Assembly: GCA_965248695.1 (NCBI GenBank)
Contig: CBDFKD010000002.1
Location: 3,008,001-3,072,000, forward strand
Length of the DNA stretch: 64,000 nucleotides
Reading direction: 5' to 3'
Source of the DNA: Acidobacteriota bacterium
GTDB taxonomy: Bacteria > Acidobacteriota > UBA890 > WLXD01
The notes under the pieces are model-generated. The model was not told the DNA's origin, searched no databases, and saw nothing but the letters and a program-made list of their open reading frames with translations. Of the stretch, positions 29,323 through 63,492 are shown in pieces (position 1 is the first letter of the stretch; every line of letters begins with the position of its first letter). The translations under genes were made by a program, and so were the position numbers.

Positions 29323-30836
29323 GCGGAACCGACGATCTCGTCCATGTACCACTCGACAAAGTCGCTCGGGCCGCTCTCCCCGATCGAGTAGCGACCGGCG
29401 CTGTAGCTCCCTGAACCCACGCCCCGGTGGTTGTTCTCGACTACCCAGATGTCCTCCTGGATCGTCACGTGCCAGAGAGCCATCAGGTCGTCGGGGTCGT
29501 AGTCGCGTCCCTCGACCGCGTCCGGGTGCACGAGCCACATCAGCTCGCAATCGGTCTGCGCCGCTCCGCGCGGGGTGAAGCGCGCGATGGCAACATGGTC
29601 GTCGTAGCACTGAGCGTAGTAGGAAAAGAACCGCGTCGCCGCGACCCGGGTCCCATACGTCCATTCGCTGATGTTGGGGAGCAACGGCGCCAGCTGCGTG
29701 CCGTCCATGGAGCCGGTTATGTAGTCGGGATTGAGCCTTCCGAACACGCGGTATTGGTCGGAAGCAGCGCCGCTTCCCATTCCCATCGCGCCGCCGAACC
29801 CACCACGCAGGTTGCGCTGCCCCTCCGGCCGGACCCAGGCGCGCACAGCGGTAGCCCGTTGCTCGAGCTGTTCGGCCGTGCCCTCTATGTCGTAGTTGTG
29901 GGTCGTCACCAGCGATTTGTGGGAAGGCCCGCAGTGATAGCACTCCTGGAAGTTCTCCAGCGCCAGCTTCCAGTTGCCCGCGATCGGATACTGCCGCCGA
30001 ACCGCGACCTTGAGATCGGCGGTGCCGTAGTACTCGAGCGTGGGGCGCATGCCGCCAACCTGGGCCTCGAAGTCCGATGGCTCATCCGCTTGCGAGAGGT
30101 TGAGGAAGATGTTGCCCTCCAGGTCACGCAGATGGCACGGGATGAGTCCGTTGTCGGCCGGATCGAAATCCTCCTGCATGCCGTAGGCATAGATGAGGCT
30201 GCCCTCGGTATCGTACGTTCAGGCATGGTACGGACACCGGAAGACGGGGCTGCTGCCGCTACTTCCGAGTTGCTTCACTGACAGGCGAGGATCGCCGGGT
30301 ACCGCGTCGCCGTCGTGACGGCACAGCCGCGATCCGCGGTGTCGGCAGACGTTGTGGAAACCGTTTACCTGGCCGTCGTTTCCGCGCACGATGATGACGC
30401 TGTCGCTGCTGCCGTACCCGAAGACGAAGTAGTCGCCGGCGTTCGGAATCCGCGAGGCATGGTCGGCGAACATCCACTGGCTCTCGGCCAGGAACGCCTC
30501 GTCCCGAAGATAGTGCTCCTCCTCGAGGTAGTACTTCGCCGGAATCGTCGTGCCCGGCTGCCAGCCTTCCGCGTAGCGGCGCCTGACGGTCGAGGCGACC
30601 GTGCTCGGGTGGGCACCGACGCCGCCGTAGCCGATGACGCGCCCCGGTGGGTTGATGCGGGCAGCGGCCCCGTTCGGGGCTGCCGTGGCCGCCGTGGGCG
30701 ACCCGTTAGCGGCGAGCGTCTCTCCGTGCAGAGCTCCTGGAAGCGCTACGGCCGCGGCGCCGGCTGCCACGGATTTCTTGGCGAAATCTCGTCGGCTGAC
30801 AGTACCTGTTACGTCTTCGCGATCGCGCTTCTTCAT
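29319..30836 (-). pseudogene. Rieske non-heme iron oxygenase alpha subunit (GbcA/choline monooxygenase-like) with Tat signal; TGA replaces a conserved Trp at 30219-30221
   Basis: SRRDFAK Tat motif; NVCRHRG...CPYHA-TGA-TYD in frame; ENFQECYHCGPSH and QED iron ligands. Confidence 0.87.
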
Positions 30837-30890: not shown

Positions 30891-32753
30891 TCAGGAGTCT
30901 ATTGGCGCCGACGACGGCGTCACAAGGGGCGGCGCGGCCGGATCGGGGTCCTCCGTGAGCCGGTGCCCGAGATCGGCTGTCTCCGAAGGAACCAGGAGGA
31001 GACCGCACCTCCGAGCCCAATCGCCGAGCGCGGCGCTGCTGGTGGTACGGACCAGAGGCGCCGCCAGGAGCAGTCCCGCCAAGATCGGGGCAAGCCAGGG
31101 GACAAACGCCGGGCTATAGATCAACGTGACTCCGAGCCAGGCAACGCCGATGCCACTGATCCAGCACGTTTTCCTGAGGGCCGTCGGCCAGGAGACGTCC
31201 ATGCCGTGCCGTCGCTGGACGCTCCACTGAACCGTGTGCCCGGTCAACACGCTGAGAACAAACCGGCAGTGGTACATCATCATGAGCGGCGCCGTTACGA
31301 CCGCGAAGACCATCTCTATCAGGGCGCTGACAACGAGCCTGCCGGCGCCGCCGAAGGATCTCCGATTCCGCGCCAAGGCAAGCCCAAGCGCCAGCAGCTT
31401 GGGCACGAACAGGATGACGACCGTGACCAGGAGCAGTGAAAGCACCGACTGCGCGCCAGGCAACGGCAAGGCCGCGAGCAGGTCGTACGGTACGGCAGCA
31501 GCGAGGCGGATCTCGCTGCTGTCGAACACGACGTACGCCGTGCTCGTCAAGAGCATCAATAGCCACAGCAGCGACGAGACGTAGCCCATGGCGCCGAGCA
31601 CGAAATGTAGCCGGCTCATCGGATGCAACCCGCGAGCCAGCAACAGCCGCAGATGTTGCAGGCTCCCCTGAGCCCAACGGCGGTCGCGCGTGGCGTAGTC
31701 GAGGATGGTGCCGGGCAACTCCTCGTAGCTGCCGCCGACCGACGGTAGCAGGTACACATGCCATCCGGCGCGCCGCAGCAGCGCTGCCTCGACGAAGTCG
31801 TGGCTGAGGATCTCGCCTCCCCAGGGCGGTTCGCCGCGCAGCACCGGCAGGTCGCAGTGGTCGATGAAGGCACTCAGCCGCACGATGGCGTTGTGGCCCC
31901 AGTAGTTGGCGGCATCCCCCTGCCAGAAGCTCTGTCCGGTAGCGATCATCGGGCTGTACACACAGGCAGCGAACTGCAGCAACCGACCGAACAGCGTCGT
32001 CTGGCGAATGGGGACCGGCACGGTCTGGATGAGCCCGGCCATCGGGTTTGCCTGCATCGCCCGCACCAGGTCGACCAGCGACTGTCCGCTCATGACGCTG
32101 TCGGCATCGAGCACCACCATGAAGTCGTAGTGCGCCCCCCAGCAATGGCAGAAATCAGCGATGTTGCCGGCCTTGCGTCCGACGTTGGCTTGCCGGCGCC
32201 GATAGTGCAATGAAATGGCGCTCGCCCAGTGCTTCGAGAGCTCCACCCAGGCCGCCCGTTCGTCGCGGGCGATCGCTTCGTCGGTCGTATCACTCAGGAC
32301 GTGGACGGCGAAGCCTACTGCCTCCCCGGTCGCCACCAGCGAGCCGATGGTCGCCGATAGGCGGCGCATGACGCGAGCCGGATTCTCGTTGTGGATCGGC
32401 ATGACGAGCGCCGTGAGGGAGACAGCGGCCTCATCGTGCGCGTCGTGCATCTGCAATGACGGCGGCGACAGCGCATCGCGGCCGGTGGCGCGCAAGACGA
32501 ACCCGATGACCCCATTCCAGAAGGCGATGCAGATCCAGGTGAACGTCGCCGCGAACAGCAGGAGGATAGCGATCTCGAGCAACGTCAGGCCAGCGGTGCG
32601 GACGATATCGAGCATCATGCCGGTACCGGTCAGCGCCGTCAGCCCGACGAGCGCGAAGAACAGCCAGCGGCGAGCACGAATGCGTCCAGCGCTGACGCCG
32701 CTCGGGCAGCCTGGCGCGGACTCGCTATTGCGAAACGTCGGGGTACCAGACAT
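30891..32753 (-). CDS. opgH: Glucans biosynthesis glucosyltransferase OpgH/MdoH
   Basis: MPIHNE, LSDT, RKAGNIADF, VLDADS, NYWGHNAI, LSHDFVEA and RDRRWAQG. Confidence 0.93.
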   Translation of the reverse strand: MSGTPTFRNSESAPGCPSGVSAGRIRARRWLFFALVGLTALTGTGMMLDIVRTAGLTLLEIAILLLFAATFTWICIAFWNGVIGFVLRATGRDALSPPSLQMHDAHDEAAVSLTALVMPIHNENPARVMRRLSATIGSLVATGEAVGFAVHVLSDTTDEAIARDERAAWVELSKHWASAISLHYRRRQANVGRKAGNIADFCHCWGAHYDFMVVLDADSVMSGQSLVDLVRAMQANPMAGLIQTVPVPIRQTTLFGRLLQFAACVYSPMIATGQSFWQGDAANYWGHNAIVRLSAFIDHCDLPVLRGEPPWGGEILSHDFVEAALLRRAGWHVYLLPSVGGSYEELPGTILDYATRDRRWAQGSLQHLRLLLARGLHPMSRLHFVLGAMGYVSSLLWLLMLLTSTAYVVFDSSEIRLAAAVPYDLLAALPLPGAQSVLSLLLVTVVILFVPKLLALGLALARNRRSFGGAGRLVVSALIEMVFAVVTAPLMMMYHCRFVLSVLTGHTVQWSVQRRHGMDVSWPTALRKTCWISGIGVAWLGVTLIYSPAFVPWLAPILAGLLLAAPLVRTTSSAALGDWARRCGLLLVPSETADLGHRLTEDPDPAAPPLVTPSSAPIDS

Positions 32754-34392
32754 AGGTCCAGGTCTCGGTCAGCCTCGCACCGCCAGCCGTGAGGAACATC
32801 CGCATGTCGGCCGCTCGGCTCCCATCCGGCTGCAAATCGAAGCTCGCGCGCCACCCCGTAGCGTCGGGAAGCGGTTGCACGCTCAGGTTCGAGGTCTGTC
32901 CGTTCGAGATCTCCAGGACGGCCGCGACGCGCTCGCCGTCTTGGATCGCCGCCACCGTTGCACCGCCGAAATCGACCACGAAGTGCCGCTGGCGGCGTGG
33001 CGGCGGGTCGCTGTCGCCGGGCAAAGCATCCCACCCGATCCGGGTGCGCTCAACTTGCATCAACGTCTGCGTAGGCAGCCGGCGATCGAAGGTCGTAGCG
33101 CGATACCTGTAGCGGCGTGCCTGCCCGGCACGGAAGGGTTCATCCGGAGCCCAGTAGGCAACGATGTTGTCGTTGAACTCGGCGCCCGTCGGAATCTCCA
33201 CCAACTCCACACCACCGCCTCCCCAGGCGCCGTCTTCGACTTCAATCCAGAGGCTGGGTCGGCGATGATAAACAGCCTCTAGGTCGAGGTAGCTGTCGAA
33301 CCGCCGATCTCGCTGAACCAGGCCGAAGCCTTGCGGGTCGCGGTCGCGCAACGAGGTGACGCGCAGCCGGCGACGATTGCTCAGCGGACGGAGGATCCAC
33401 TCGCCGGCGCGCGTGAGCATCAGCAGGCCGTCGGAATCGTGCACCTGCGGACGATAGTCATCCCACTCGCGGGCACGATTCGGGCCATACAGGAACATGC
33501 TCGTCAGCGGAGCGACGCCGAGCTTGGCAATGTCCCGGCGGGCATGGAGACGGGCATCAACGCGCAGCACGGTGCTCTCGCCCGGCTGCAAATCGAAGCG
33601 GTAGGCGCCAGTTACGGAGGGGCTATCGAGCAAGGCGAAGAACACGAGCGTGTCGTCGCCCGGGGCTGGCTGCAGAAGCCAGAACTCACGGAAGACCGGA
33701 AACTCCTCGCTGCCGGGCGGCACCACATCAACGGCGAGGCCGCGACCCGACAGCCCGTGAGCCTGGTGACCGCCCAGCAATCGAAAGTACGACGCGCCGA
33801 GAAACACGGCCGCCTCCTGGCTCTGTCCCGAGTGCCCGAACGGATAGTGGACGCGGAAGCCAGCGTAGCCGAGCTCCGGCGAGAGCTCCGCGGCGGTAGC
33901 GGCAAGCGTCTCGGGGTAGCGAAAAAGCTCCCGATCGAGCAGCAGCTCTCTGGCCCGGCCGTCTTCGACCAGGTGAATGCGTACCCGATCTTGATAGAGC
34001 GACCCCGGGTGGAAGAGCTGCAGCTCGAACGGCGACTCGCCACGCCACAGGGCCGCCTGCGGACGAAACTCGATCGAGCGATACTGCGCGTAGTCGAGCC
34101 GCTCGAGGGCCGCCGGCACGGTGCGCTCGTACGGCGTGTACGGCAGCCGCGCTGACCTCAGCGCACGCTCGTTGACGTAGGTATGCAACGAATCGGCCGT
34201 GACCGAGGTAGGTGGCGGTACAGACGCGTCTGCAGCGCGCTGCCGATCCGCCGTCGCCAGCGCCGGGCCGTCTTCGACCGGCTTGGTGTCGCGGCCCTGC
34301 GTAGATAGTGTGGGGTCCGACCCACACGCCGCACCGATCAGCAACAGAGAGAGCACGGCGAGCGGCCACGCACACAACCGACCGAGTTGCAT
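32725..34392 (-). CDS. opgG: Periplasmic glucan biosynthesis protein OpgG/OpgD (MdoG family)
   Basis: LDYAQYRSIEF, FLGASYFR, GLSGRGLA, EEFPVFREFW, RPQVHDSDGL and DNIVAYW; lipoprotein-like N-terminus from ATG 34392. Confidence 0.9.
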   Translation of the reverse strand: MQLGRLCAWPLAVLSLLLIGAACGSDPTLSTQGRDTKPVEDGPALATADRQRAADASVPPPTSVTADSLHTYVNERALRSARLPYTPYERTVPAALERLDYAQYRSIEFRPQAALWRGESPFELQLFHPGSLYQDRVRIHLVEDGRARELLLDRELFRYPETLAATAAELSPELGYAGFRVHYPFGHSGQSQEAAVFLGASYFRLLGGHQAHGLSGRGLAVDVVPPGSEEFPVFREFWLLQPAPGDDTLVFFALLDSPSVTGAYRFDLQPGESTVLRVDARLHARRDIAKLGVAPLTSMFLYGPNRAREWDDYRPQVHDSDGLLMLTRAGEWILRPLSNRRRLRVTSLRDRDPQGFGLVQRDRRFDSYLDLEAVYHRRPSLWIEVEDGAWGGGGVELVEIPTGAEFNDNIVAYWAPDEPFRAGQARRYRYRATTFDRRLPTQTLMQVERTRIGWDALPGDSDPPPRRQRHFVVDFGGATVAAIQDGERVAAVLEISNGQTSNLSVQPLPDATGWRASFDLQPDGSRAADMRMFLTAGGARLTETWTYVWYPDVSQ

Positions 34393-36016
34393 GTCCACGA
34401 TCGCGTCGACGACACGTCTCCGAGCCGTTGCTCTCCGATTCTTGCTCGCGTGGTTGCTCATCAACGCCATCTTGCTAGCCCCGCGCTGGTTGGCGACCGG
34501 CAGCCTCGGCGGCGCTTGGGTGACGGCGGAGTCAGGGCTGGTGGTCGGACTCGTCGCGTTGCTGCCCGTTCGCCATTGGAGCCAGCTGCTCGCCCGGTTC
34601 GCTGCGGTCGTTCTGGTCAGTCTGAGCATCGTCGTGCTTGCCGACACGGTGGCACGGCAAATTCTCGCACGTCCGCTGAGCCTCTACCTCGATCTGAGCT
34701 TACTGGGCGCGGTGCTCAACCTGCTACGCGGCACGCTCGGCACCTTCGTCGCGACCCTTGCCGTGCCCCTGGCGCTCATCGTAGCCGGCCTGCTCACCTG
34801 GGGCCTGGCACGTCTGCTGCAGCCAGAAGCCGTTCCGCGTGGCTCGTGGATCCTGCGCGGCGCCGGCGTCGCCATGATCACGGTGTCGGCTCTCGGCCTG
34901 CTCGACAGGCCGCCGCCAGGGATCGCCGAGAGGATGGCTCGACCGGCAGTGCTGGTCGCCGGGCAGCAAACGAGGCACCTGCAGCGAATGCTCACTGAGC
35001 GCCAGCGCTTCGAGGCCGAGATGGCAGCGGTCCAGGCGAGCTACGCGCACGTTCCGGGCTTGCTGCAACGACTCGAGGGACGCGATGTCGTGCTCGGCTT
35101 CATCGAGTCATACGGCTTGTCAGCGATCACCGATCCGCGCTACGCGGGCATCGTCGTACCCCGGCTTCAAGAGCTCGGAGCGCGGCTGCAGGCCGCAGAT
35201 CTGTATCTGGCTACCGGGGCGCTGGTGGCGCCCGTCCAGGGAGGGCAATCGTGGCTCGGGCGTGGATCGTTGCTCGGCGGCCTGTGGCTGGAGAACCAGC
35301 TGCGCTATGACCTGCTGCTGGCGGGGGGGCGCGAGACGCTGGTCGACGACTTCCGTCGCGCCGGCTACCGCACCGTGGCGCTGATGCCGGCGATCACCCA
35401 CGCCTGGCCCGAAGGCGAACGCCTCGGCTACGACGAGATCTATGCCCACAAGGACATCGACTACGCCGGTCCGGCGCTCAACTGGGTCACCATGCCGGAT
35501 CAGTTCACCTGGTCGTTCCTGCAGCGGCACATCCGCAGCGGCGACGATCCCCGGCCGCTGTTCGCCGAGCTCGGCCTGATCAGCAGTCATGCACCGTGGA
35601 CGCCGATTCTGACGGTGCTCGACGACTGGGACTCGATCGGCAACGGAGAGGTGTTCTCCAAATGGGAAGGGGTGGGCGAGCGGCCGGTCGACCTGTGGCG
35701 CGATCACGACCGGGTGCGCCAGCACTACGCCTTGTCTATCGACTATGCGCTTCAAGTCGCCACCGCGTACGCCGAGCGCTACGTCGATGAGCGCACGCTG
35801 CTACTGGTGCTCGGCGACCATCAACCCGCCCCGATGATTACCGGAGACGATGCCAGCCGCGCCTCGCCGGTCCACGTGATCGCCGCCGACCCGACGCTGC
35901 TGGAGCCCTTCGTGGCCTGGGGCTTCGTCGAGGGCGCCATTCCGGCCTCGGCTCACTCGGCACCTCGGATGGACGCGTTCCGCGACTGGTTCGTGCGCGC
36001 CTTCAGCCTGCCATGA
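34391..36016 (+). CDS. Membrane-anchored alkaline-phosphatase/sulfatase-superfamily protein (LtaS/OpgB-like architecture)
   Basis: About 5 N-terminal TM segments, then FIESYG, GGQSWL, SSHAPW and GDHQP (E, S nucleophile, H, DH); the start is uncertain. Confidence 0.78.
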   Translation: MSTIASTTRLRAVALRFLLAWLLINAILLAPRWLATGSLGGAWVTAESGLVVGLVALLPVRHWSQLLARFAAVVLVSLSIVVLADTVARQILARPLSLYLDLSLLGAVLNLLRGTLGTFVATLAVPLALIVAGLLTWGLARLLQPEAVPRGSWILRGAGVAMITVSALGLLDRPPPGIAERMARPAVLVAGQQTRHLQRMLTERQRFEAEMAAVQASYAHVPGLLQRLEGRDVVLGFIESYGLSAITDPRYAGIVVPRLQELGARLQAADLYLATGALVAPVQGGQSWLGRGSLLGGLWLENQLRYDLLLAGGRETLVDDFRRAGYRTVALMPAITHAWPEGERLGYDEIYAHKDIDYAGPALNWVTMPDQFTWSFLQRHIRSGDDPRPLFAELGLISSHAPWTPILTVLDDWDSIGNGEVFSKWEGVGERPVDLWRDHDRVRQHYALSIDYALQVATAYAERYVDERTLLLVLGDHQPAPMITGDDASRASPVHVIAADPTLLEPFVAWGFVEGAIPASAHSAPRMDAFRDWFVRAFSLP

Positions 36017-36813
36017 CCGCATGGCTGGGGTTGATCCGCTCGCTGGTGGTGTACTGGCGCCCGGGCCGTCAGCGGGCGCTGCGAGCGCTGTATCGTCCCT
36101 TCGTCGAACTCGACGATCTCGTTTTTGACGTCGGCGCCCACCTGGGTGACCGATCGGTGGCGTTCGCGGCCCTGGGCGCCCGGGTCGTCGCGCTCGAGCC
36201 GCAGCCACGAGTCGCCCGCTGGCTGAGACGATTGGTCGGGCACAGCGATCGAATCACGGTGCGACAAGAGGCCGTCGGCCGCAGGACAGGGATCGGCGAC
36301 CTTGCCATAAGCCGTCGAACCCCTGCTGTTTCGACGCTGGCCCACGGCTGGAGATCGCGTCTTCCCGACGTCAACAGGAGCTTTAGAAACGTGCGCTGGG
36401 ATGAGACGGTGAGCGTCACCGTCAACACCCTGGACGCGCTGATCGCCACCTATGGGGTACCGGCCTTCTGCAAGATCGACGTCGAAGGGCATGAGGCAGA
36501 CGTGCTCGCCGGACTCAGTCAGCCGCTACCGAGCCTGTCGTTCGAGTTTGTCGCCGGCGCACTGGATGTAGCCACCGACTGCATCGGTGAGCTCCGTGGG
36601 CTCGGGCGATACGAGTTCAACGCTATCGCGGTCGAGCAGCGCCGCTACCTGTTCGACGCCTGGCGCAGCGGTGACGAGGTAGTGCAGTGGCTGGCGGCCG
36701 GTGCCGACGGATGCTCGTCCGGTGACCTGTACGCCGTTCTGGTGCATCCTTCCACCGGCGCGCTACCGAACACGGCCGACGCGTCCGAACTCGGCGACAA
36801 CGGAGCACCGTGA
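36013..36813 (+). CDS. FkbM family methyltransferase
   Basis: VFDVGAHLG, ALEPQP, TLDAL and KIDVEGHE. Confidence 0.9.
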   Translation: MTAWLGLIRSLVVYWRPGRQRALRALYRPFVELDDLVFDVGAHLGDRSVAFAALGARVVALEPQPRVARWLRRLVGHSDRITVRQEAVGRRTGIGDLAISRRTPAVSTLAHGWRSRLPDVNRSFRNVRWDETVSVTVNTLDALIATYGVPAFCKIDVEGHEADVLAGLSQPLPSLSFEFVAGALDVATDCIGELRGLGRYEFNAIAVEQRRYLFDAWRSGDEVVQWLAAGADGCSSGDLYAVLVHPSTGALPNTADASELGDNGAP

Positions 36814-37655
36814 GCATCCCGATCGACGAACGTACAGCCTGGCACCTGGTTGGCGCGATCTCACCAGGATCGGTGCGGCCCGATGCCCCGGTGCGCGTTC
36901 AACACGAGACCCGGTCCGACGTCTGGCTCGAGGTCGACGCGTCGGGAGCCTGGCGAGCTTCGGCGCCGACGACCGACGACGCCCGCGACGTGTTCGAGCT
37001 GTACCTGCCGCTTCAGGTGCGCGATCGGTTCGTGATCGGGCAAATGGCGCAGAGTCTCGACGGTCGTATAGCGACCGTCGCCGGGAACTCCCAGTTCTTG
37101 ACCGGACCGGCCGACATTCGCAGGCTCCATCGACTGCGGGCGCTGGTCGACGCGGTTGTCATTGGCGCCAGCACGGTAGCCTCCGACGATCCGCAGCTGA
37201 CCGTTCGCGAAGCCGAGGGCGACGACCCGGTCAGGGTGGTACTCGACCCGAACGGACGCCTCGACCCGGCAAGCACGGTGTTCACCGACGGCGCAGCACC
37301 CACCATCGTGCTGCGCCAGGCAGCCAACGACCATGGACCGAGTGCTGCTGCGGGCGAAGTCATCGAGCTTCCGGTGGATGGCCCAAACGGGTTCGACACG
37401 CGCACCGTTCTGTCGCTGCTCCGAGACCGTGGGCTGAAACGGGTGCTCGTCGAGGGTGGCGGGATCACGGTGTCGCGCTTCCTGCAGGCGGGCGCGCTGG
37501 ATCGCCTACACGTAACGGTGGCGCCGGTGTTGTTGGGATCGGGCTGCCGAGGCTTCACGCTCGACCCGATCGTTGCGCTCGACGAGGCAATCCGACCGCC
37601 AGCGCGGCGCTTCAACCTGGGCGAAGACGTCGTATTCGATCTCGATCTCAGCTGA
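36810..37655 (+). CDS. RibD C-terminal reductase-domain protein (stand-alone)
   Basis: AQSLDGRIAT, HRLRALVDAVVIGASTV, DDPQLTVR and VLVEGGG; no deaminase domain. Confidence 0.88.
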   Translation: MSIPIDERTAWHLVGAISPGSVRPDAPVRVQHETRSDVWLEVDASGAWRASAPTTDDARDVFELYLPLQVRDRFVIGQMAQSLDGRIATVAGNSQFLTGPADIRRLHRLRALVDAVVIGASTVASDDPQLTVREAEGDDPVRVVLDPNGRLDPASTVFTDGAAPTIVLRQAANDHGPSAAAGEVIELPVDGPNGFDTRTVLSLLRDRGLKRVLVEGGGITVSRFLQAGALDRLHVTVAPVLLGSGCRGFTLDPIVALDEAIRPPARRFNLGEDVVFDLDLS

Positions 37656-38578
37656 ACCGCGCCGCCGGCCTGGTCATCAAGATCACGGCCCCCGGAAGGC
37701 TGGCCGTCAGCACCAACAGACCATAGGCGACGGAGATCGCCACGCCATCGGCCACCGGCAGACCGGCTGCTTCCCACAGCAGGGCGGCCGCCGCCTCGCG
37801 CACGCCCCAGCCGGCGATGGTAGCGGGAATCAGCATGGCCACCAGCACCGGGGCGACGAGCGGCAATAGCGTGCTCGACGGTGTTTCCACCCCGACGGCA
37901 CGCGCCATCAAGAGATAGACGGTGATGTACGAGGCGACTAGCAGGCCGGAGCTGATCAGCTGCGCCGGCAGCGCTCCCGGCGACAGGAGTCCCGCACGCG
38001 AGTCGTGCCAGACGCGTCGTGCGAGCGAATCCGTAACCCCCGATCGCGACATTGCCCCAGGCGAGCAACCCGGACACGACGACCACCAGCAACCCCATAC
38101 CCAGCAGCGGCACCGCTATCGGAGCCAGGGGCGTCGACAGCCAGATGAGCGATCCGCCGGCGACCACCAACATCACGACCTGCCCCGACGCCCGTTCCAG
38201 CATCACGGCGCGCAATGCCCGCCCGCCGAGACCCGGCGGAAGCGCGCGTCCATGGCGCCAGGCGCGGCCGAGGTCACCGCCCACTCCACCCGGGAGCACC
38301 TGGTTCAAAAAGCTGGCGATCGCGTACTCACGCAGGGCGGCGACGAAGGGCAGGCGGATGCCGAGCCGGTCGGCGGTGAATCGCCAGCGCCAGGCTGAAA
38401 GCACCACCTGGAGCAGCGAGATGGCAGCGGCGGGCACCACCCAGCGCGCCTCCAGCTTGCCGAGGCGATCGATCACCCGGTCAAAGTCGAGGTACACCGC
38501 CAGGATGACCAGCAACGCGATGCTGAGGCCGAATCGCGCCAGCAAGAGCCCGACTCGCGCCCCCGCCGCCGATTTCAC
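37648..38578 (-). pseudogene. Lysylphosphatidylglycerol-synthase TM / flippase-like protein with a +1 frameshift near 38055
   Basis: AWRW, FLNQVLPGGVGGD and VMLER in one frame; IPATIAGWGVREAA in the next; the shift is in a G run (TGGGGC). It may be a sequencing error. Confidence 0.8.
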
Positions 38579-40542
38579 GACTGACCGGCCAACTCGTCCG
38601 CCGGCAGCGCCAACAAGTCTGTGTGGCCGACGCTGAGCTCGAACGATCGGCGCTCGATCGTGATCCTGCGACGCCCGGCCCAGGCTTCGATTCGCCGCCT
38701 GCTTGCTGGTCGCTCCTGGCTCGCAGCCTGCCGCCATCCGTCTACCAGGGCGAGCGCCAGCGCTGCGTCGGCGAGGCCAAGCTGCCAAACGCTCGGCTGT
38801 AGGCAGGTACGGTACCCGGCACGGCGGAAGAGCTCCTCAGCCACCCGCCCAGCAGCCGGTCCGAGCGCCGGGCCCAGGCCCTTGTCGCTCAGTTGATGGG
38901 CGCTCACCGCCTCTCGCACGAGCTCGTCGTCCGGGTCGACATCAGCGGTAGGGGCCCCGCTGGCGGTCGAAAAGAAGTGGAACTCCCCGTCGTAGCTCAG
39001 CGCAAAATAGGCGGCGCGTTCTGCCTGCTTGCATACGTTCACCAGGCGACGTAGCCACGCTTCCGAAACCAGGTCCAGCAGGGCGGAACCGGTCACCAGA
39101 TGGGCGCTGGCGACCGCCTCCAGGCCGCGATCGGCAAGGTCTCCATGCTGGCGGCAGAGACGACAATGGGGGCCGGGGCTCACCGCTCGGCCGAGCAATC
39201 CGGCGTCATGATCGACCAGCGTCCAGGCTTGAGGCAGCGTTAGCCGTGGCGACAGGAAGCGGAAGTTGGAGCCAGTACCGCTACCCAGATCGACGATCCG
39301 CGACCATCCTCTCTGCTGCCAGGTCAGCCGCAGCCGGTCGACGAGGTCGTAGGCCCGCGAGCGATGATCGACCGGCTCGCGCAACGACAGCCAGTCGGCG
39401 GCAAAACGATCGATGACCGGCGGCCGGTGCGCCACGGCTGAGTCAAAGGCTCTCGGCGACGCTCCACCGCCGAGCGGCGTCAGCTCGAGGACCGAGGCGG
39501 CGAGCGCATGACCGCCCTGATCCCAGGTTGGCAGACGCGGCGCCACGAGGCGAGCCGCGGCGGCCATATCAGCCAGCCTCTGTGCTCCGTCCGGATCGCC
39601 GAGCACACCCTCCAGGGCGCCGGCCAGCGCCTCGGCTTCACCGGGGGCTACCAGCACGGCGGCGCCGTCCGGCATCGCTTCCGGGATCGCACCGCCCGTG
39701 GTGCTGACCACCGGGAGCCCGCGCGCTAGCGCTTCCGTTAGCACCATGCCGAAGCCCTCATAGTGCGAGGCCAGCACGAACAGCGAGGCGGAGTCGTAGT
39801 AACGGTCCAAGTGCTCCGCGTCGCACTCACCGACGAATTCGATCCTGTCGCCAAGCCCGGCCGCTGCCGCTTGATCGAGCACTGCCTGACCATGGGCGGG
39901 ATGGTCTCGTAGGCTCCCGACACACACACAGCTCCACGAAAGGTGCTGCAGTCGTTGCAACGCACCAATCAGAACGTCGTGACCCTTGCGCGGAGTCACC
40001 GAGCCAACACACAGCAGTCGAGGCGACGCCCCGGCGCTCGGACCTGTAGCCGTCTTGGCGGGGTCGGTCCCCGGGGGCACTGCCCGCACCCGGTCCTGCG
40101 CGACTCCGAGAGCCTTCAGCCGCGACGCCGTGAACTCGCTGGTGGTCACGATCCCGGCGCAGCAGCGTAGGGCGGCACGCTCTGTTTGGCGGAACCGCTC
40201 CTGATCAGCGCTCGACAGGCCGGTCTCGTCGGCCAGCGGGTGATGCACCAAGGCGAGGATCCGCAGCCGATCGCCGTGGGCGTGCACGACGTCGGGAAGG
40301 GCGCCCATCGCCAGCCCGTCGATCAGCGCCCGAACCCCTTCCGGTATCTTCGAAAGCGCCTTCGCCAGCGCCCGCCGCGCCGTTGTGTCGGCATCGGGAA
40401 AACGACCGTCGAGCTCGTGGACCGTGACCCGCCACCCCAGCCGCTGCAGCGCGGCCGCCATGCGAGCGTCGTAGATACTGCCACCGGTGTGTCGCGCCAG
40501 GGATCCCGGAACAACCAGGTGCAGCTCGAAGTCCTCAGGCAT
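38575..40542 (-). CDS. GT4 glycosyltransferase fused to a class I SAM methyltransferase-like domain
   Basis: TGGSIYD, RKGHDVL and [15 protein letters not shown], then [13 protein letters not shown] and [11 protein letters not shown]. Confidence 0.88.
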
Positions 40543-40933
40543 CTCCCTCGTAGCTGGCCCAGGCGACGTGCGACTCGCTGAGGGTGACGCGAACACGAGT
40601 GATCCGGCGCGCCCCTTCACCCAACTCGCCCCGGTGCAGCGCTGCAACCAGGCGATCGAAGATCTCCCGCGCCAGGAACTCGGTGGTCGTGTTCTTGCCG
40701 TCGAACGCGGGATCCTCGTCGAGGTTGGTGTAGTTCAGCTGGCTGAGGATCGAACCCAGCTGCTGGCTGGCGAGGCCGATGTCGACTACCAGGCCGTCGG
40801 CATCGAGATCGGGTCGGCAGAAGGTGGCATCCACCACGTAGGTCGCCCCGTGCAGTGCCTGCGCCGGGCCGAAGGCCTCGCCGTCGAAGCTGTGGGCGAT
40901 CATGAAGTGGTCTCGAACGTTCAGGCTGTACAC
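40535..40933 (-). CDS. 6-pyruvoyl-tetrahydropterin synthase/QueD superfamily (COG0720), PTPS-IV subtype
   Basis: [26 protein letters not shown] and ESH; lacks the QueD CxxxHGH motif. Confidence 0.87.
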
Positions 40934-41005
40934 AGTAAGTGTCTCCCGTCGTCGGATCCGATCCGGCTCGCTACGCCGGCGCTATCAACGACAAGCTCAA
41001 CGCTT

Positions 41006-41992
41006 TCATGGTGTGGGATAGCAGATACGGTGGCACAGTGCCGCGCCCGGATCAGCGCTCAGTCGCTCCAGCACCTGTGGCAGGTCCTCGAAGTCGTCCT
41101 CGCCGGTGATGAGCACGTCGAGCTTCGGATCAGCAAGGAGCTCGAGCGCCAGGCGCATGCGTCGTCCGTGGCTCCAGCGGGGGATGCGCTCCGGCGGAAG
41201 GCGGCCCACCTGACTGCTCTTGATGGTCAACCTGCGGGCGTGGAACGCCTCTCCCAGCGGCAGGTCGACGTCGCGACTGCCGTACCAGCTGAGGTCTACG
41301 ATCGTGCCCTCCAAGCCGGCCACCGCCAGCGCGGTCCGCAGCCCAGCGGGCCGGCCGCTAGCGTGGACAACGAGGTCGGCATCGGCGTCATCGGGGGCTT
41401 CGCCGCGAAACCTGATGCCGAGCTCCCGGGCAGCAGCCTCACGCCCGGGGTTGGTATCGATCACCGTCACTTTCGTGCCCGGAACTTGACGGCACAGAAA
41501 CCCGACCAACAGACCCAGTACGCCGGCGCCAACGACGACCACCCGGTCGCCGACACGGGGGCATGCATCCCACAACACATTGACCGCGGCTTCCATGTTC
41601 GCCGCCAGCACGGCGCGCTCGAGGGGAACGTTGTCGGGCACCAGCGTGACGTTGACGGCGGGCACGCAGTAGAGATCCTGATGCGGGAACAGGGAGAAGA
41701 CTCGTCGCCCCAGAAGCGACCCTTCTCCTTCGACCACCTCGCCAACGTTGATGTAGCCGTACTTGACTGGCGCCGGAAAATCGCCCTCTTGGAACGGGGC
41801 GCGCATCGTCTCATATTGGGACGGCGGAACCTCGCCGCGGAACACGATGGACTCGGTCCCGCGGCTGATCGCCGAGTAGCGTGTGCGTACGAGGACGTGG
41901 CCGTCGCAGACCGCCGGTATGGAGGCCTGGCGAATCTCGCCCTGTCCGGGCGCCCGTATCCAGAATTGGCGAGCAGTGTAGGTTCCTGGCAT
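41006..41992 (-). CDS. Zinc-binding alcohol dehydrogenase-family (MDR) protein
   Basis: SAISRGTE, KYGY and VVGAGVLG. Confidence 0.87.
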   Translation of the reverse strand: MPGTYTARQFWIRAPGQGEIRQASIPAVCDGHVLVRTRYSAISRGTESIVFRGEVPPSQYETMRAPFQEGDFPAPVKYGYINVGEVVEGEGSLLGRRVFSLFPHQDLYCVPAVNVTLVPDNVPLERAVLAANMEAAVNVLWDACPRVGDRVVVVGAGVLGLLVGFLCRQVPGTKVTVIDTNPGREAAARELGIRFRGEAPDDADADLVVHASGRPAGLRTALAVAGLEGTIVDLSWYGSRDVDLPLGEAFHARRLTIKSSQVGRLPPERIPRWSHGRRMRLALELLADPKLDVLITGEDDFEDLPQVLERLSADPGAALCHRICYPTP

Positions 41993-42016
41993 CGTTCGTG
42001 GGCAACCGTAGCAGGT

Positions 42017-42793
42017 ATGAGGTCGCTGACTACCGTCGAGGATCCCGTGAGCGCAACCGTGCCATCGACTGGCGCCGCACGCCGCGCCAGCAACGATCTT
42101 GCGTTCGCGCTCCCAGCGTTGATTGCCGCGGCCGTCGGCTTTCGGGTCGCCATCGACCTTCCGTTCGACTACTTGCTGGTCGCGTTCACACTCTACGCGC
42201 TTCAGGGCGCAGCGGTGGTGTGGGCCGCTCCTGCCGAGCTGCCCGTCCCGGGAGTAGGCGTGGCGAACCGCGTCACGCTGGTCCGGTCCACTCTGGTGAT
42301 GCCGGTGGCGGCGCTGACGCCCTACTCGACTGTGCTCGGCGATCGCGCGTACTGGTGCATCATCCTCGCGGGCACGGTGGCGTTGATGCTCGACGGCGTC
42401 GACGGGTGGCTGGCCCGTCGCACCGGCACCTGCACGGATTTCGGCGGCCGCTACGACATGGAGCTTGACGCCTTCTTCATGCTGGCGCTGTCGGTGCTGG
42501 TGTGGAGAAGCAACAAGGTCGGGGCGTGGGTGCTGTTCATCGGCGTGCTCCGTTACCTCTTCGTCGCCGCGGCCCGGGTCTGGCCAGCTCTGCGGCGCGA
42601 GCTGCAACCCAGCTGGCGGCGCAAGACGATCTGTGTTGTCCAGGGCCTGGCGCTGCTCGCTTGCCTGGGCCCGGGCGTTCCGCCCGCCCTGGCGTCGGCG
42701 GGCGCCGCTGGCGCGCTCGTGCTATTGACTTACTCGTTCGCCGTCGACATTCGGCGACTCGTAGCGGACTCATCACGACAAACCGAGGTCTGA
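42017..42793 (+). CDS. CDP-alcohol phosphatidyltransferase family protein
   Basis: ANRVTLVR and DGVDGWLARRTGTCTDFGGRYDMELD signature; the start is 42017 or GTG 42047. Confidence 0.9.
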   Translation: MRSLTTVEDPVSATVPSTGAARRASNDLAFALPALIAAAVGFRVAIDLPFDYLLVAFTLYALQGAAVVWAAPAELPVPGVGVANRVTLVRSTLVMPVAALTPYSTVLGDRAYWCIILAGTVALMLDGVDGWLARRTGTCTDFGGRYDMELDAFFMLALSVLVWRSNKVGAWVLFIGVLRYLFVAAARVWPALRRELQPSWRRKTICVVQGLALLACLGPGVPPALASAGAAGALVLLTYSFAVDIRRLVADSSRQTEV

Positions 42794-42830
42794 AGTTCCA
42801 GTGACCTCGAGAGCGAGGCAAAGAGGAACG

Positions 42831-43655
42831 ATGGGCACTCTAGAGGGCAAGGTGGCGCTGGTCTCGGGAAGCGGGCGAGGCATCGGCAGGTCGATCGCCT
42901 GTAAGCTCGCAAGCGAGGGCGCGCGCGTGGTCGTGAACGATCTCGACGAGGGGCCCGCCCTGGAGACCGTGGCGCAGATCCAGACCGCTGGAGGGCAGGC
43001 AGTAGCGTGCATCGGCAACGTCACCGACGACGACTTCGGCGAACGCTTCGTGGCGACGGCGGTCGACACCTACGACGGGCTCGACATCATCGTTAACAAT
43101 GCCGGCTACACATGGGACGGCGTCATCCAGAAGATGATCGATGAGCAGTGGGAGGCGATCCTCGAGGTTCATCTGACGGCGCCGTTTCGCATCCTGCGAG
43201 CCGCTGCGGAGTACATCCGACCGAACGCCAAGGCCGAGGCCGCGGCTGGGGCCGAGGTGCACCGGAAGGTGGTGAACATCTCCTCGATCGCCGGCACCGG
43301 GGGCGGCGCCGGACAGGCCAACTACTCCACCGCCAAGGCCGGCATCCTCGGCCTGACACGGGCCATGGCCAAGGAATGGGGGCGCTATAAGGTCAACGTC
43401 AACGCGGTGGCATTCGGGCTGATCTCCACGCGGCTGACGAAGCCATGGGGCGACGAGGATGCCCAGATCGAGATCGATGGGCGCACGATCAAGGCCGGTG
43501 CGAACCGGCAACTACTTGAAGCCGCTCCGCAGTTGATCCCGCTGGGACGGCCGGGGACCCCCGAGGAGGCCGCCGGCGCCGTCTATCTGCTGTGCACCCC
43601 GGATTCAAACTACATCACCGGCCAGCTGCTGATCTGCGGCGGTGGGCTCGTATAG
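42831..43655 (+). CDS. SDR family (3-oxoacyl reductase-like)
   Basis: SGSGRGIG, NNAG and YSTAK. Confidence 0.92.
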   Translation: MGTLEGKVALVSGSGRGIGRSIACKLASEGARVVVNDLDEGPALETVAQIQTAGGQAVACIGNVTDDDFGERFVATAVDTYDGLDIIVNNAGYTWDGVIQKMIDEQWEAILEVHLTAPFRILRAAAEYIRPNAKAEAAAGAEVHRKVVNISSIAGTGGGAGQANYSTAKAGILGLTRAMAKEWGRYKVNVNAVAFGLISTRLTKPWGDEDAQIEIDGRTIKAGANRQLLEAAPQLIPLGRPGTPEEAAGAVYLLCTPDSNYITGQLLICGGGLV

Positions 43656-43715: not shown

Positions 43716-45149
43716 CTACTCTCCCTCGCCCTCCATCGCCTCCACCGCGACAGCGCGCCGCGCGACGATCTCGTCGTACTCCTCCTGCGACATGTACGTC
43801 AGGTCGACCCACGCGTGCGCCATCTCGTCGACGGTACGATCGCCCCAGCCAACCCATTGCTCGTGATCGGGGTTGTTGGGGTTGTCGACCGTATTGTCGT
43901 GCCAGGCGGTGATCTTGATGATCGTGCCGGCGGGCACGACCGGGGCAACGTGGTCGGCGTAGATGTAGTTGACGTGCCAGTTCCACTGGAAGTTGTCGAC
44001 CTGGCTGAGGACCTCCTCGCGCCCATCGGGATAGATGGCCGTCATCTGCATGGCCTTGCCGCGCATGTGCATGTGCGGCTGGAAATTCTCCAGTCGCGCC
44101 GGCCACTTGATCGTGTGGAGTTGCTGGGTCACGGCAATCTCGCCGGGGGAAATGTCGATGCCGGTATCACCGCGCGCGTCCCAGAACTGCAGCCGCGTGC
44201 GGTTCCAGGGTTTGTTGTCCTTATCGTAGAACCACATCCCGATCTCGACCTGGCTGTCCTCCACCTGCTTTCCCATGGCGTGCATGTGGACCTCCCAGCG
44301 GATGCTCGAGCCGGGGAGCATCACCTTGCCGGCGCCGTCCGGAAAGATCTCTCCTGTCTTACCGACTGCCCACTCCATGAACAAACCGGGACCGCCCATG
44401 GCACTGCGACTGGTCGCCACTACCGGACCCGTGCTCATGGGTCCCGCTTCTTCGTCCTGCTCTAGAAACGCCAGCACGTGGTGGGTGATGGTAAGGGCGT
44501 CGTTGCCGACCGGGCGGATCTCGATCGCCTTCACCCAGCGCGGCTCGGTGAGGCCGGTCGGCGTCACCGGGCGGAACCACTTGTCCTGCGTCACCGCCTC
44601 CAGCGTGTAGGGCTCGGAGGCCACGATCAGGTCGGGCTCGCGACCGAAGGTGTCGAGTAGCTGCCACGAGTTGGGATCGGGAAAATCGGCCGGCGGCGGC
44701 AGGTCGGCAGCATCGCCCAGGGGGGCGCCGGCGTCGACCCACGCAACGATCGTATCGATTTGCTCGGCGTTTAGGCCCGTGTCGTTCTTGAACTCCTTGA
44801 TGCCGATGCTGCGGTTGATGTGCCAGGGAGGCATGACCCGGTTCTGGACCTTCGCCTTGATCATGGGCGCGTACGTGCGCGCCTCTTCGTAGGTCAGCAG
44901 CGACATCGGCGCGATGGACCCGGGCTGGTGGCATGCCTGGCACTTGGCGCGAAAGATCGGCGCGACGTGCTTGGCGAAGGTGACTGCGTCCGGGACCTCG
45001 TCAGCCCGCGGCAGCGCCGCCGCCAGGGGACCTGTCGAGTCGGCCTGAGCAAGTACCGCGCTGGGGATGACCGCGGTTGCCATGATCGCCATCACGATGC
45101 ACGAGCCCGCCCAGGTCCGACCACGGCTCGAAATCACTGTTTTCATCAT
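43716..45149 (-). CDS. Secreted cytochrome c + copper type II (PHM/DBH-like) monooxygenase-domain protein
   Basis: Signal peptide; CQACH; ITHH, EVHMH, QPHMHMRG and DEM. Confidence 0.8.
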   Translation of the reverse strand: MMKTVISSRGRTWAGSCIVMAIMATAVIPSAVLAQADSTGPLAAALPRADEVPDAVTFAKHVAPIFRAKCQACHQPGSIAPMSLLTYEEARTYAPMIKAKVQNRVMPPWHINRSIGIKEFKNDTGLNAEQIDTIVAWVDAGAPLGDAADLPPPADFPDPNSWQLLDTFGREPDLIVASEPYTLEAVTQDKWFRPVTPTGLTEPRWVKAIEIRPVGNDALTITHHVLAFLEQDEEAGPMSTGPVVATSRSAMGGPGLFMEWAVGKTGEIFPDGAGKVMLPGSSIRWEVHMHAMGKQVEDSQVEIGMWFYDKDNKPWNRTRLQFWDARGDTGIDISPGEIAVTQQLHTIKWPARLENFQPHMHMRGKAMQMTAIYPDGREEVLSQVDNFQWNWHVNYIYADHVAPVVPAGTIIKITAWHDNTVDNPNNPDHEQWVGWGDRTVDEMAHAWVDLTYMSQEEYDEIVARRAVAVEAMEGEGE

Positions 45150-48071: not shown

Positions 48072-48514
48072 TGGGCGGCAGCAGCGGTGAGACGGATCTC
48101 GAACAACGCCTCCTGATCCGGAGCCAGCTCCTCGTCCCCTGCCGGCATGCGGTTGGCGCGCAGCATCATCGCTATGAGGTCGACCGTCTCGCGACCTGAC
48201 AAGCGGCCCGGATCGTCCTCCGGCATGGTCTCTTGAATGATCGCGTACAGGATGCCGAGGGATTCCTCACGCCAGTACTGCATGAAGTCCCGGCCCATGA
48301 GGCTGATGGAGGTTTCACCACCACGCAGGTCGACCCCGTGACAGGTACCGCATTCACGCTCGTACGTACGCAGACCTCGCTCGGCTTGCTCGTCGGTGTA
48401 GACACCGTCCTCGGCGCTGACCTGCGGCATCCCGGTGATCGTCACGTCCGCGGCCAGCGTCGCCCCGGCAAGGGCGAGCGTGCCAGCCAGCGCGCTCAGC
48501 ACCGTCTTCGTCAC
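48068..48514 (-). CDS. Class I cytochrome c
   Basis: GVYTDEQAERG, CGTCHG and distal TMP; its stop overlaps the PQQ dehydrogenase start. GTG start at 48514. Confidence 0.88.
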   Translation of the reverse strand: MTKTVLSALAGTLALAGATLAADVTITGMPQVSAEDGVYTDEQAERGLRTYERECGTCHGVDLRGGETSISLMGRDFMQYWREESLGILYAIIQETMPEDDPGRLSGRETVDLIAMMLRANRMPAGDEELAPDQEALFEIRLTAAAAQ

Positions 48515-48727
48515 CTGCGTCGTCTCCGATTCGGATGGCGGCAATCCGCCAACTCCGATGCCAAACCCGGAAACACTACCCTACTGCGCCGCGGGGCCGG
48601 TAGACGATCCGGCTCGCCGTCGAGTTCACCAACGCCGATGCCTTCGAGGCCGAGCGCGCCTCGACAACAGGACGCCGACACACCGATCCGACTCGAAAGA
48701 AGTAGCGTTGGAGTCGGAGATGATGCC

Positions 48728-59300: not shown

Positions 59301-59562
59301 CAACGATCGTCGCGTGTGCTCTCCACTCCCGAATGAGGTGAGGTGGCCGAACGCAAGGCCCGAGCCCTGGAATACGCAGCGCGTACCGTAGCACGCTTTT
59401 GTCGGCATTTGAAAATGTCAACGGTTAGCGGCGGTACACTCAGGCGCAAGAAGCCGATGAGTATGGAATAGTGGTCCCACGATCCACCGAAGAGTCATCG
59501 ATCTGAGCCGGGCGGCGACGGCCCGCCTGTTGACACTCCATACAGCCCAGGAGCGGAGCCAG

Positions 59563-62019: not shown

Positions 62020-62060
62020 GCTACCGAGACCATGAGGTTGTTGCCCCGGCGGAGTCGAGG

Positions 62061-63470: not shown

Positions 63471-63492
63471 TCCGCAACGAGTGCCGGCTTTG

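Follow-up and report, generated by a model that had tools for sequence, protein, structure and literature searches.

Proteins of the PTPS-IV family carry the signature FGPAQ, which replaces the Cys...HGH motifs of PTPS-I, PTPS-II and PTPS-III, and genes with the domains PF00925 and PF01872 are found in their neighbourhood, according to the passages that treat the family in the published surveys (PMC5445326 for signature and neighbourhood; PMC5041015 also for the motif replacement). Osmoregulated periplasmic glucans (OPGs) receive phosphoglycerol and phosphoethanolamine from membrane phospholipids through enzymes that join transmembrane (TM) segments to a periplasmic sulfatase domain, as set out in the part of PMC3818809 on these substituents. 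Genes of both kinds meet at positions 30891-42793 of a 64-kb stretch of DNA from an Acidobacteriota bacterium (assembly GCA_965248695.1, contig CBDFKD010000002.1, positions 3,008,001 to 3,072,000); this whole stretch of 64,000 nucleotides is called the window here. The PTPS-IV gene of the window belongs to a cluster that is a member of a widespread, uncharacterised (SCO6650-type) PTPS-IV cluster, joined in this genome to opgG and opgH. An unusual head group of a membrane lipid is the probable product of the cluster, and the recurrence of its linkage to opgGH in distant bacteria suggests a new decoration of periplasmic glucans.

The single close solved relative of the window PTPS is PDB entry 3d7j from Streptomyces coelicolor, entitled 'Uncharacterized protein SCO6650', which aligns over residues 1-129 of the protein (E 4.5e-52) and shares the FGPAQ signature. 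Relatives of this protein have genes for GTP cyclohydrolase II and RibD_C as neighbours. Unlike the published PTPS-IV neighbourhoods, the window lacks a GTP cyclohydrolase II gene, and its cluster is joined to opgGH and to a membrane transferase gene of a particular subtype (type A). The gene content, folds and motifs of this cluster, its conservation and its subtype-specific linkage to opgGH are described below.

A conserved PTPS-IV gene cluster

Eight close-packed cluster genes (34391-42793) stand head-to-head with opgG-opgH (30891-34392). The preliminary description of this DNA had reported such a packed group abutting opgG-opgH, and all ten of its genes were recovered in place from open reading frame (ORF) lists and from Pfam and NCBIfam scans. 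The two opg genes are adjacent and co-directional on the minus strand, and their membership in the MdoG and MdoH families is confirmed: opgH (mdoH; 30891-32753) scores 750 bits with the NCBIfam MdoH model NF003958, against a cutoff of 419, and contains Pfam glycosyltransferase family 2 (GT2) domains, and opgG (mdoG; 32725-34392) matches PF04349 (MdoG) at E 6e-177. The likely start of opgG is the ATG at 34392, from which a signal peptide leads to a lipobox-like ...LIGAAC, the lipobox being judged by eye. This ATG and that of the membrane transferase gene (34391) are divergent and overlap in the palindrome CATG at 34390-34393. The overlapping starts leave no intergenic space for promoters, and both promoters would consequently lie inside the coding region of the neighbouring gene, unless the true starts differ.

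From this point an LtaS/EptA-like membrane transferase gene of type A (34391-36016), a gene for an FkbM-family S-adenosylmethionine (SAM) methyltransferase (36013-36813; TIGR01444 at 86 bits against a cutoff of 37.7, and PF05050) and one for a stand-alone RibD_C reductase (36810-37655; PF01872, E 3.8e-40) run on the plus strand, tied together by ATGA/GTGA start-stop overlaps at 36013-36016 and 36810-36813. The minus strand then carries a flippase-like gene of the LPG_synthase_TM/MprF type with a +1 frameshift (37648-38578; PF03706), a fusion of a glycosyltransferase family 4 (GT4) domain with a class I SAM methyltransferase (38575-40542; PF00534 and PF13439; methyltransferase part at 38578-39390), the PTPS-IV gene (40535-40933; PF01242, E 6e-25) and a gene for an NAD(P)-dependent dehydrogenase of the medium-chain dehydrogenase/reductase (MDR) superfamily that resembles polyol dehydrogenases (41006-41992). 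Here too the genes interlock, the PTPS stop overlapping the GT4 start at 40535-40542 and the stop of the GT4-methyltransferase fusion overlapping the GTG start (38578) of the flippase-like gene at 38575-38578. A CDP-alcohol phosphatidyltransferase gene on the plus strand (42017-42793; PF01066, E 3.5e-17) diverges from the dehydrogenase gene across a spacer of 24 bp.

Clusters of this kind are not confined to the window. A PTPS-IV alignment scanned against one genome per species gave at least 580 matching stretches, and all 8000 scored candidates from a protein database matched, which makes PTPS-IV a large orphan family. The best 80 loci were analysed with 10 kb on each side, their genes being counted by tblastn with proteins of the window and genes from the loci, and by Pfam scans of representatives of recurrent ORF clusters. 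These loci span Acidobacteriota, Gemmatimonadota, the Alpha-, Beta- and Gammaproteobacteria (Pseudomonadota) and Actinomycetota, and the names of many carriers are those of halophiles or alkaliphiles (Chromohalobacter, Vreelandella, Thioalkalivibrio, Salinisphaera). Across the four phyla, the PTPS homologues of all 80 loci are 64-75% identical to that of the window, the nearest ones, at about 75%, belonging to named Acidobacteria and Gemmatimonadales records. By mean identity and by tree, the window cluster sits among Vicinamibacterales (Acidobacteriota).

All 80 loci have PTPS and GT4 genes, and the dehydrogenase is present in 78, always directly upstream of PTPS-IV. The methyltransferase domain (75/80), the CDP-alcohol transferase (70/80) and RibD_C (69/80) are nearly as regular, followed by creatininase (48/80), GTP cyclohydrolase II (47/80), the sulfatase-like transferase (44/80), FkbM (43/80) and the flippase-like gene (36/80); opgG was found in 18, opgH in 17 and cytochrome b561 in 10. 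The usual order begins with the CDP-alcohol transferase (minus), continues with dehydrogenase, PTPS, GT4, methyltransferase and sometimes the flippase-like gene (plus), and then has RibD_C (minus), cyclohydrolase II (plus), creatininase, FkbM and the transferase (minus), with opgG and opgH (plus) at the end where they are present. Since the gene order recurs in 80 loci, the arrangement is not one of chance. A short-chain dehydrogenase/reductase (SDR) gene at 42801-43655 was considered as a ninth member of the window cluster and rejected, being conserved in 3 of the 80 related loci. Rfam searches for riboswitches or other known RNAs gave zero matches at gathering scores in the window and four related loci.

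Relative to most of its relatives, the window cluster is a reduced version. In those relatives, genes for GTP cyclohydrolase II (PF00925, E ~1e-54) and creatininase (PF02633), both identified by Pfam and NCBIfam, lie between RibD_C and FkbM; around the window PTPS, RibD_C is present and PF00925 is absent from the 64 kb. The preliminary description had stated that PTPS-IV recurs with RibA- and RibD-type genes, and this holds in the relatives, by the counts given above. Its further proposal that the product originates from GTP is plausible in view of the cyclohydrolase II and creatininase genes of 47 and 48 relatives. The likeness to the early riboflavin pathway lies in the relatives, which encode cyclohydrolase II, RibD_C and a creatininase-family protein, whereas the window encodes the reductase only, without a deaminase.

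A creatininase-family formamidase, BrbF, is described as deformylating a GTP-derived pyrimidine (PMC9478397). The pairing of a GTP-cyclohydrolase-III-like paralogue with such a formamidase was considered for the related loci and rejected: in an alignment with E. coli RibA, C54, C65 and C67 are kept in 47 of 47 sequences and Y105 in 46 of 47. A Tyr-to-Met change of the SCO6655 type would leave a formyl intermediate as a substrate for the creatininase. With about 370-410 residues, the cluster-linked cyclohydrolase II, seen in a Vreelandella locus (L053:14085-15200) and in 46 other loci, is a long form. Its N-terminal ~165-200 residues belong to no Pfam family and align to the NCBIfam model PRK08815, and the catalytic Cys and Tyr residues of RibA are kept.

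Predicted enzymes of the cluster

In the window PTPS, the residues F21, G22, P23, A24, Q25, H28, G29, A30 and T31 in and around the FGPAQ signature are the same in all 15 aligned homologues. The invariant E85 pairs in alignment with a Glu of the canonical PTPS 2g64, which we take to be the residue by which the T-fold holds the 2-amino-4-oxopyrimidine edge. Recognition of this edge is a property of T-fold proteins.

For the dehydrogenase that precedes PTPS-IV, the sole domain match is to ADH_zinc_N, at 26.3 bits under a threshold of 31.8; there is no ADH_N match, and the BchC model gives 49 bits against a cutoff of 291. Its weak sequence matches in the PDB are RspB and threonine, sorbitol and galactitol-1-phosphate dehydrogenases, and in the weak RspB alignment a Ser stands at the position of a zinc Cys. 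It had earlier been called a Zn dehydrogenase; its place in the MDR superfamily stands, but a zinc site is not demonstrable, given the sub-threshold match and the Ser.

The CDP-alcohol transferase is assigned to its family by PF01066 (63.7 bits against a cutoff of 22) and by the full D-x2-D-G-x2-A-R-x8-G-x3-D-x3-D signature, which reads DGVDGWLARRTGTCTDFGGRYDMELD and lies at residue 126. This is the CDP-alcohol phosphotransferase motif, and of the 70 loci with a match to the enzyme, 68 have it too. PgsA and phosphatidylinositol-phosphate synthase share both the domain and the signature, but the window enzyme is not a PgsA orthologue: PgsA is its nearest NCBIfam model, at 38 bits against a cutoff of 109.

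The RibD_C protein matches PF01872 at residues 73-249 and has no deaminase domain, and so is not a bifunctional RibD. Every NCBIfam riboflavin model falls below its cutoff (TIGR00326, 112 bits against 156), and the 72-residue N-terminal extension (36810-37025, plus strand) has no family match, the best Pfam hit being at E 0.13. In the fusion protein, the nearest NCBIfam models of the GT4 half are those of small-molecule or lipid GT4 enzymes (EpsE, MshA, BshA, GlcN-PG synthase), all below cutoff. The C-terminal domain reaches Pfam Methyltransf_25 only at E 0.0078. Its structural model, with a predicted local distance difference test score (pLDDT) of 95.6, has class I SAM methyltransferases as the top matches listed by Foldseek (best 3mgg, E 1.9e-10), and its DLGSGTG loop is conserved, G38 and G40 being invariant and D34, L35 and G36 nearly so. 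The two domains are fused in the window and in the Vreelandella locus L053 (10396-12324) and are encoded by two overlapping ORFs in another locus (L045, 10330-12274). Because they are fused or overlapping, the two enzymes may share one substrate.

The flippase-like gene is the damaged member of the cluster. The PF03706 profile matches at positions 3-184 in one frame and 200-299 in another, and an intact homologue likewise aligns by tblastn in two pieces and two frames. One surplus base in a C5 homopolymer at 38037-38041 (G5 on the gene strand) shifts the frame; the run may be a sequencing error, the mark of a pseudogene or a slippage site. The family assignment made in the preliminary description thus holds, and the gene is split. 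As in MprF, the PF03706 match covers the profile and the context is one of lipid synthesis, but the window gene stands alone, without a synthase domain, and is frameshifted. In Pseudonocardia sp. N23 (L044:10706-13978), flippase-like (from 11604) and sulfatase-like (from 12917) matches lie together in a single very long ORF; a similar ORF of ~1199 residues is present in a further locus (L079). These long ORFs may be flippase-transferase fusions or over-extended ORFs in high-GC DNA.

The frameshift raises the question of whether the cluster of this genome is a decaying remnant without a product. Two further features would fit decay, namely the GTP cyclohydrolase II and creatininase genes missing from the window and present in many relatives, and an in-frame TGA in a nearby Rieske oxygenase gene. 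The remaining cluster genes, however, are all intact, with overlapping start and stop codons, and a homopolymer is the classic site of a sequencing error. Moreover, 33 of the 80 relatives also have no cluster-linked cyclohydrolase II within reach, and the substrate could come from a housekeeping ribA. Decay of the window cluster is therefore regarded as improbable.

The predicted enzymes could also make a soluble product, for instance a cofactor, a pigment or a compatible solute, in the form of a glycoside of pterin or pyrimidine type, with the CDP-alcohol enzyme linking two soluble alcohols by a phosphodiester. T-fold proteins bind pterins and purines, the many halophiles among the carriers would suit a solute, and MshA and BshA, nearest to the GT4 half though below their cutoffs, are small-molecule glycosyltransferases. 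In its lines on PTPS-IV, PMC5041015 ties the family to the synthesis of cofactor F420, citing unpublished work; the earlier statement that PTPS-IV has no assigned product is hence not undisputed, and the family has no established function. F420 genes were seen neither in the window nor among the recurrent neighbours. The Pfam scans of recurrent ORF-cluster representatives contained zero cytidylyltransferases, and three membrane proteins recur in these clusters (the CDP-alcohol transferase, the flippase-like protein and the TM-anchored transferase). On this balance a soluble glycoside is very unlikely, and a membrane-lipid head group remains the favoured product.

Linkage to opgGH and the membrane transferase

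The linkage to opgGH recurs in the relatives of the window cluster. Within 10 kb, opgG and/or opgH are found in 21 of the 80 loci; among the 59 loci with full flanks the count is 19. About 0.3 loci would be expected by chance, on our own estimate with one opgGH copy per ~5-Mb genome placed at random. The preliminary description had proposed a neighbourhood survey for such enrichment, and the enrichment is strong. It is also specific to one subtype of the membrane transferase. Type A transferases, defined by at least 45% identity to that of the window, occur in 19 loci, and opgG/H adjoin in 14 of these and are absent in 3, the other 2 loci being truncated. The more distant type B transferases occur in 25 loci, with opgG/H adjoining in none (0/25).

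The adjacency takes at least five gene orders. That of the window is also found in Vicinamibacterales, Longimicrobiales and Gemmatimonadales. In two loci (L017 and L039), opgG, opgH, dehydrogenase, PTPS, GT4, methyltransferase and flippase-like gene all run in one direction, the start of the dehydrogenase match lying a few bases at most from the opgH end. In two Terriglobia loci (L055, L064), opgH-opgG and transferase-FkbM point away from each other, at a distance of a few kilobases from the core. The genes opgG, opgH, FkbM and creatininase follow one another in one direction in three Vreelandella loci, in one of which (L053) the opgH ORF and FkbM have one boundary base in common. In a Kiloniellales locus (L047), opgH is divergent from CDP-alcohol transferase-FkbM-dehydrogenase; elsewhere opgH and FkbM overlap by 11 bases (L012), or RibD_C is followed by opgH (L076). 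OpgH of L047 and of L076 scores above the cutoff of the MdoH model; the L012 protein is a fragment. On a tree of dehydrogenase, PTPS and GT4 (76 rows, quick search), the adjacency requires 11 changes, against 17-22 in the ten shuffles listed, and branches with good support force at least 8 of them. Multiple forced changes indicate that the adjacency is not one inherited block.

The type A transferase itself is visible as a member of its superfamily mainly through its fold. Its match to PF00884 is below threshold (21.4 bits, with a gathering score of 25). An AlphaFold model built with 41 homologues (pLDDT 81) has long N-terminal membrane helices followed by an alpha/beta domain, and so would present the architecture of OpgB and OpgE, with N-terminal TM segments and a sulfatase-type domain. 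The best structural matches of the model in the PDB, found with Foldseek, are LtaP/LtaS, MCR-1/EptA and GacH, at E 8e-07 to 2e-05 (7.9e-07 for 4uop, 1.2e-06 for 2w5r, 1.4e-06 for 9nww and 1.7e-05 for 5fgn). These are enzymes with phospholipid donors, but identity to them is 11-14%. Look-alikes of the transferase in the ESM Atlas are annotated only as 'sulfatase-like hydrolase/transferase family protein'.

Residues E239, S240, G284, G285, S287, W288, H400, D476 and H477 are invariant in the transferase family. E239, S287, W288 and H400 are invariant in both subtypes, and D476/H477 are retained in 19 of 19 type A rows and 20 of 22 type B rows. By their positions, E239, S287, H400 and D476-H477 are candidates for a metal site and a Ser/Thr nucleophile of the LtaS/EptA kind. 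The C/S-x-P-x-R (formylglycine) motif is absent from the window transferase and is not conserved in the family, 6 of whose 42 members have it at scattered places that do not correspond to one another. The hydrolase-type active site that the preliminary description had named as counter-evidence is thus not present in this form. Of its assignment to an LtaS/OpgB-like enzyme with TM segments and an alkaline-phosphatase fold, the fold is borne out by the structural matches, but the Pfam sulfatase match is below threshold and profile similarity to OpgB is absent. The model makes the protein a candidate head-group transferase of the alkaline-phosphatase superfamily.

In ten loci (L004, L010, L016, L017, L019, L021, L025, L032, L040 and L052), FkbM and the type A transferase are separated by a cytochrome b561 gene (PF01292), as at L004:17380-18042; the window has no such gene in this interval.

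The company that the type A transferase keeps allows a narrower account, in which transferase and FkbM form a separate OPG-modifying module that uses ordinary phospholipids, by transfer of phosphoethanolamine or phosphoglycerol together with methylation, and whose chemistry has no relation to the PTPS-IV product. The type A transferase and FkbM keep company with opgGH, which adjoins in 14 of the 19 type A loci, FkbM directly follows opgH in Vreelandella and in L012, and OpgB and OpgE offer a precedent with ordinary head groups in the account of PMC3818809. Such a module would not explain why type B transferases, with the same invariant residues, accompany PTPS-IV clusters in 25 loci without opgGH, nor why at least 22 of the 43 loci with FkbM have no opgG/H nearby. 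In L017 and L039, furthermore, opgGH is joined to the dehydrogenase-PTPS-GT4 operon and not to the transferase. A separate module is accordingly quite doubtful, and the reading preferred here is that transferase and PTPS-IV pathway act on the same head group.

A putative route from lipid head group to glucan

The favoured reading places the enzymes in one chain. The stand-alone RibD_C would reduce the product of GTP cyclohydrolase II without deamination, so that the 2-amino-4-oxopyrimidine face is retained and the intermediate is committed away from bacterial riboflavin synthesis; as the window has no cyclohydrolase II gene, the substrate must come from a gene outside it. The MDR dehydrogenase and PTPS-IV would then remodel the ribityl or polyol compound, speculatively by oxidation at C2' and ring closure to a pterin resembling dihydroneopterin phosphate. 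GT4 and the two methyltransferases would glycosylate and methylate the compound, and the CDP-alcohol phosphatidyltransferase would join it to CDP-diacylglycerol as the head group of a phospholipid. After transfer to the outer leaflet by the MprF-like flippase, the LtaS/EptA-fold enzyme would hand the phospho-head group to the OpgGH glucan, much as OpgB and OpgE do with phosphoglycerol and phosphoethanolamine. The full chain, from the building of the head group to its passage to the glucan, is a hypothesis with good support, a real possibility that falls somewhat short of probable. Two of its parts are more probable than the whole: that the conserved pathway has a membrane-linked product, and that it is functionally coupled to OPGs in the lineages where the genes are joined.

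A number of points weigh against this chain. We infer every substrate, product, topology, acceptor and chemical step in it, and the literature searched gave no published function or product of the cluster and no link of it to opgGH, the type A transferase or OPGs; the F420 attribution mentioned above points elsewhere. In the 64 kb there is neither a GTP cyclohydrolase I or II gene nor a creatininase gene, by tblastn with the genes of L053 and by a Pfam scan that covered 144 ORFs, each 140 codons or longer; the preliminary description had already noted the absence of a cyclohydrolase gene, and the creatininase is likewise absent. The cyclohydrolase II paralogues of the relatives look canonical, with Tyr105 and the zinc cysteines, so a formamidase should not be needed and the creatininase has no explained place in the chain. 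The frameshift in the flippase-like gene may have impaired the pathway in the window.

Others concern the transferase and its partners. The structural matches have template modelling (TM) scores of only 0.3-0.45, and the candidate nucleophile segment (residues 282-302) is modelled at pLDDT <50. Searches of PDB chains with the transferase, as a single sequence and as a profile, gave zero sequence-level matches. For all the likeness in architecture to E. coli OpgB and OpgE, and the position of the window gene beside opgGH, there is zero detectable sequence or profile similarity to either (hhalign probability 1.8% for OpgB and 0.6% for OpgE). OpgB and OpgE are themselves not significantly similar to each other in the description given by PMC3818809, so the missing similarity does not exclude an analogous role for the window transferase. 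As to linkage, opgG/H are missing from the 10-kb surroundings in 40 of the 59 loci with full flanks, and 7 loci with opgG/H nearby have no transferase (6 of these 7 have FkbM). None of the Actinomycetota carriers (Pseudonocardia, Streptomonospora, Kribbellaceae) has opgG/H nearby, and among them sulfatase-like matches (L044, L049) and flippase-like matches (L044, L049, L054, L074, L080) nevertheless occur.

Finally, 36 of the 80 loci have no sulfatase-like gene within reach, so that in most organisms the pathway may end with the lipid or small molecule itself. This leads to the alternative in which a new phospholipid or glycolipid itself serves against salt, alkali or drought stress, with opgGH as a co-regulated envelope or osmotic housekeeping neighbour and the sulfatase-like enzymes using other acceptors or polymerising head groups as LtaS does. 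The core and the CDP-alcohol transferase are indeed far more constant (70-80 of 80 loci) than the linkage to opgGH (21 of 80), type B transferases are never beside opgGH, the cluster extends to Actinomycetota, and many carriers are halophiles or alkaliphiles. The top structural matches of the transferase, LtaS and LtaP, are moreover polymerases. Co-regulation, however, leaves unaccounted for the opgH genes that abut or overlap dehydrogenase or FkbM genes, the contrast between the subtypes (14/19 against 0/25) and an adjacency kept through at least five rearrangements. A lipid end product with opgGH as a mere neighbour is somewhat unlikely on this evidence, and transfer of the head group to the glucan is preferred for the lineages in which the genes are joined.

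The widest form of the favoured reading is bolder than the chain in the window. It holds that Gram-negative bacteria of three or more phyla make a phospholipid head group from a pyrimidine or pterin polyol that is glycosylated and methylated, that reductase, dehydrogenase and PTPS-IV build it from the intermediate of the riboflavin pathway, so that a pterin-like ring would arise without GTP cyclohydrolase I, and that a new family of LtaS/EptA fold moves it to glucans. In this generality, and in all its parts at once, the proposal is rather unlikely.

Several features of the window lie apart from the cluster, among genes of unrelated metabolism. The Rieske oxygenase gene mentioned above, for the alpha subunit of a ring-hydroxylating oxygenase (29319-30836, minus strand), is divided into a Rieske domain ORF (30219-30836) and a catalytic domain ORF (29319-30179) in the same frame by an in-frame TGA at 30219-30221, at the expected Trp of C-P-Y-H-x-W (...CPYHA*TYD). 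Recoding of this TGA was considered and rejected, TGA being a normal stop in neighbouring genes; the codon is a nonsense change or a sequencing error. Beyond the cluster, a 477-residue protein (43716-45149) has a weak cytochrome c match only, and a PQQ-dependent dehydrogenase gene (46122-48580, minus strand; PF01011, E 3e-190) adjoins a small cytochrome c ORF; among the related loci, 5 have a relative of this enzyme and 5 a relative of the 477-residue protein. A gene pair at 59461-63467 (plus strand), PSD/DUF1592-DUF1588-DUF1585-DUF1587-DUF1595 followed by DUF1552 (HXXSHH), is a conserved pair unrelated to the cluster, and ankyrin repeats at 63370-63999 come after the DUF1552 gene.

PTPS-IV has had a crystal structure for years, and its cluster context turns an 'unknown pterin-like enzyme' into a testable hypothesis about envelope lipids. 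Cultured, non-pathogenic carriers exist, among them Vreelandella, Chromohalobacter, Variovorax and Streptomyces coelicolor; opgGH adjoins the cluster in Vreelandella salicampi, V. populi and V. nanhaiensis, but not in Chromohalobacter or Variovorax. If the favoured reading is true, the cluster would define a new, nucleobase-derived class of phospholipid head groups and a new OPG substituent, and it would supply the long-sought function of PTPS-IV and SCO6650. It would also extend the biology of OPGs to Acidobacteriota and Gemmatimonadota, in which opgGH was found here.

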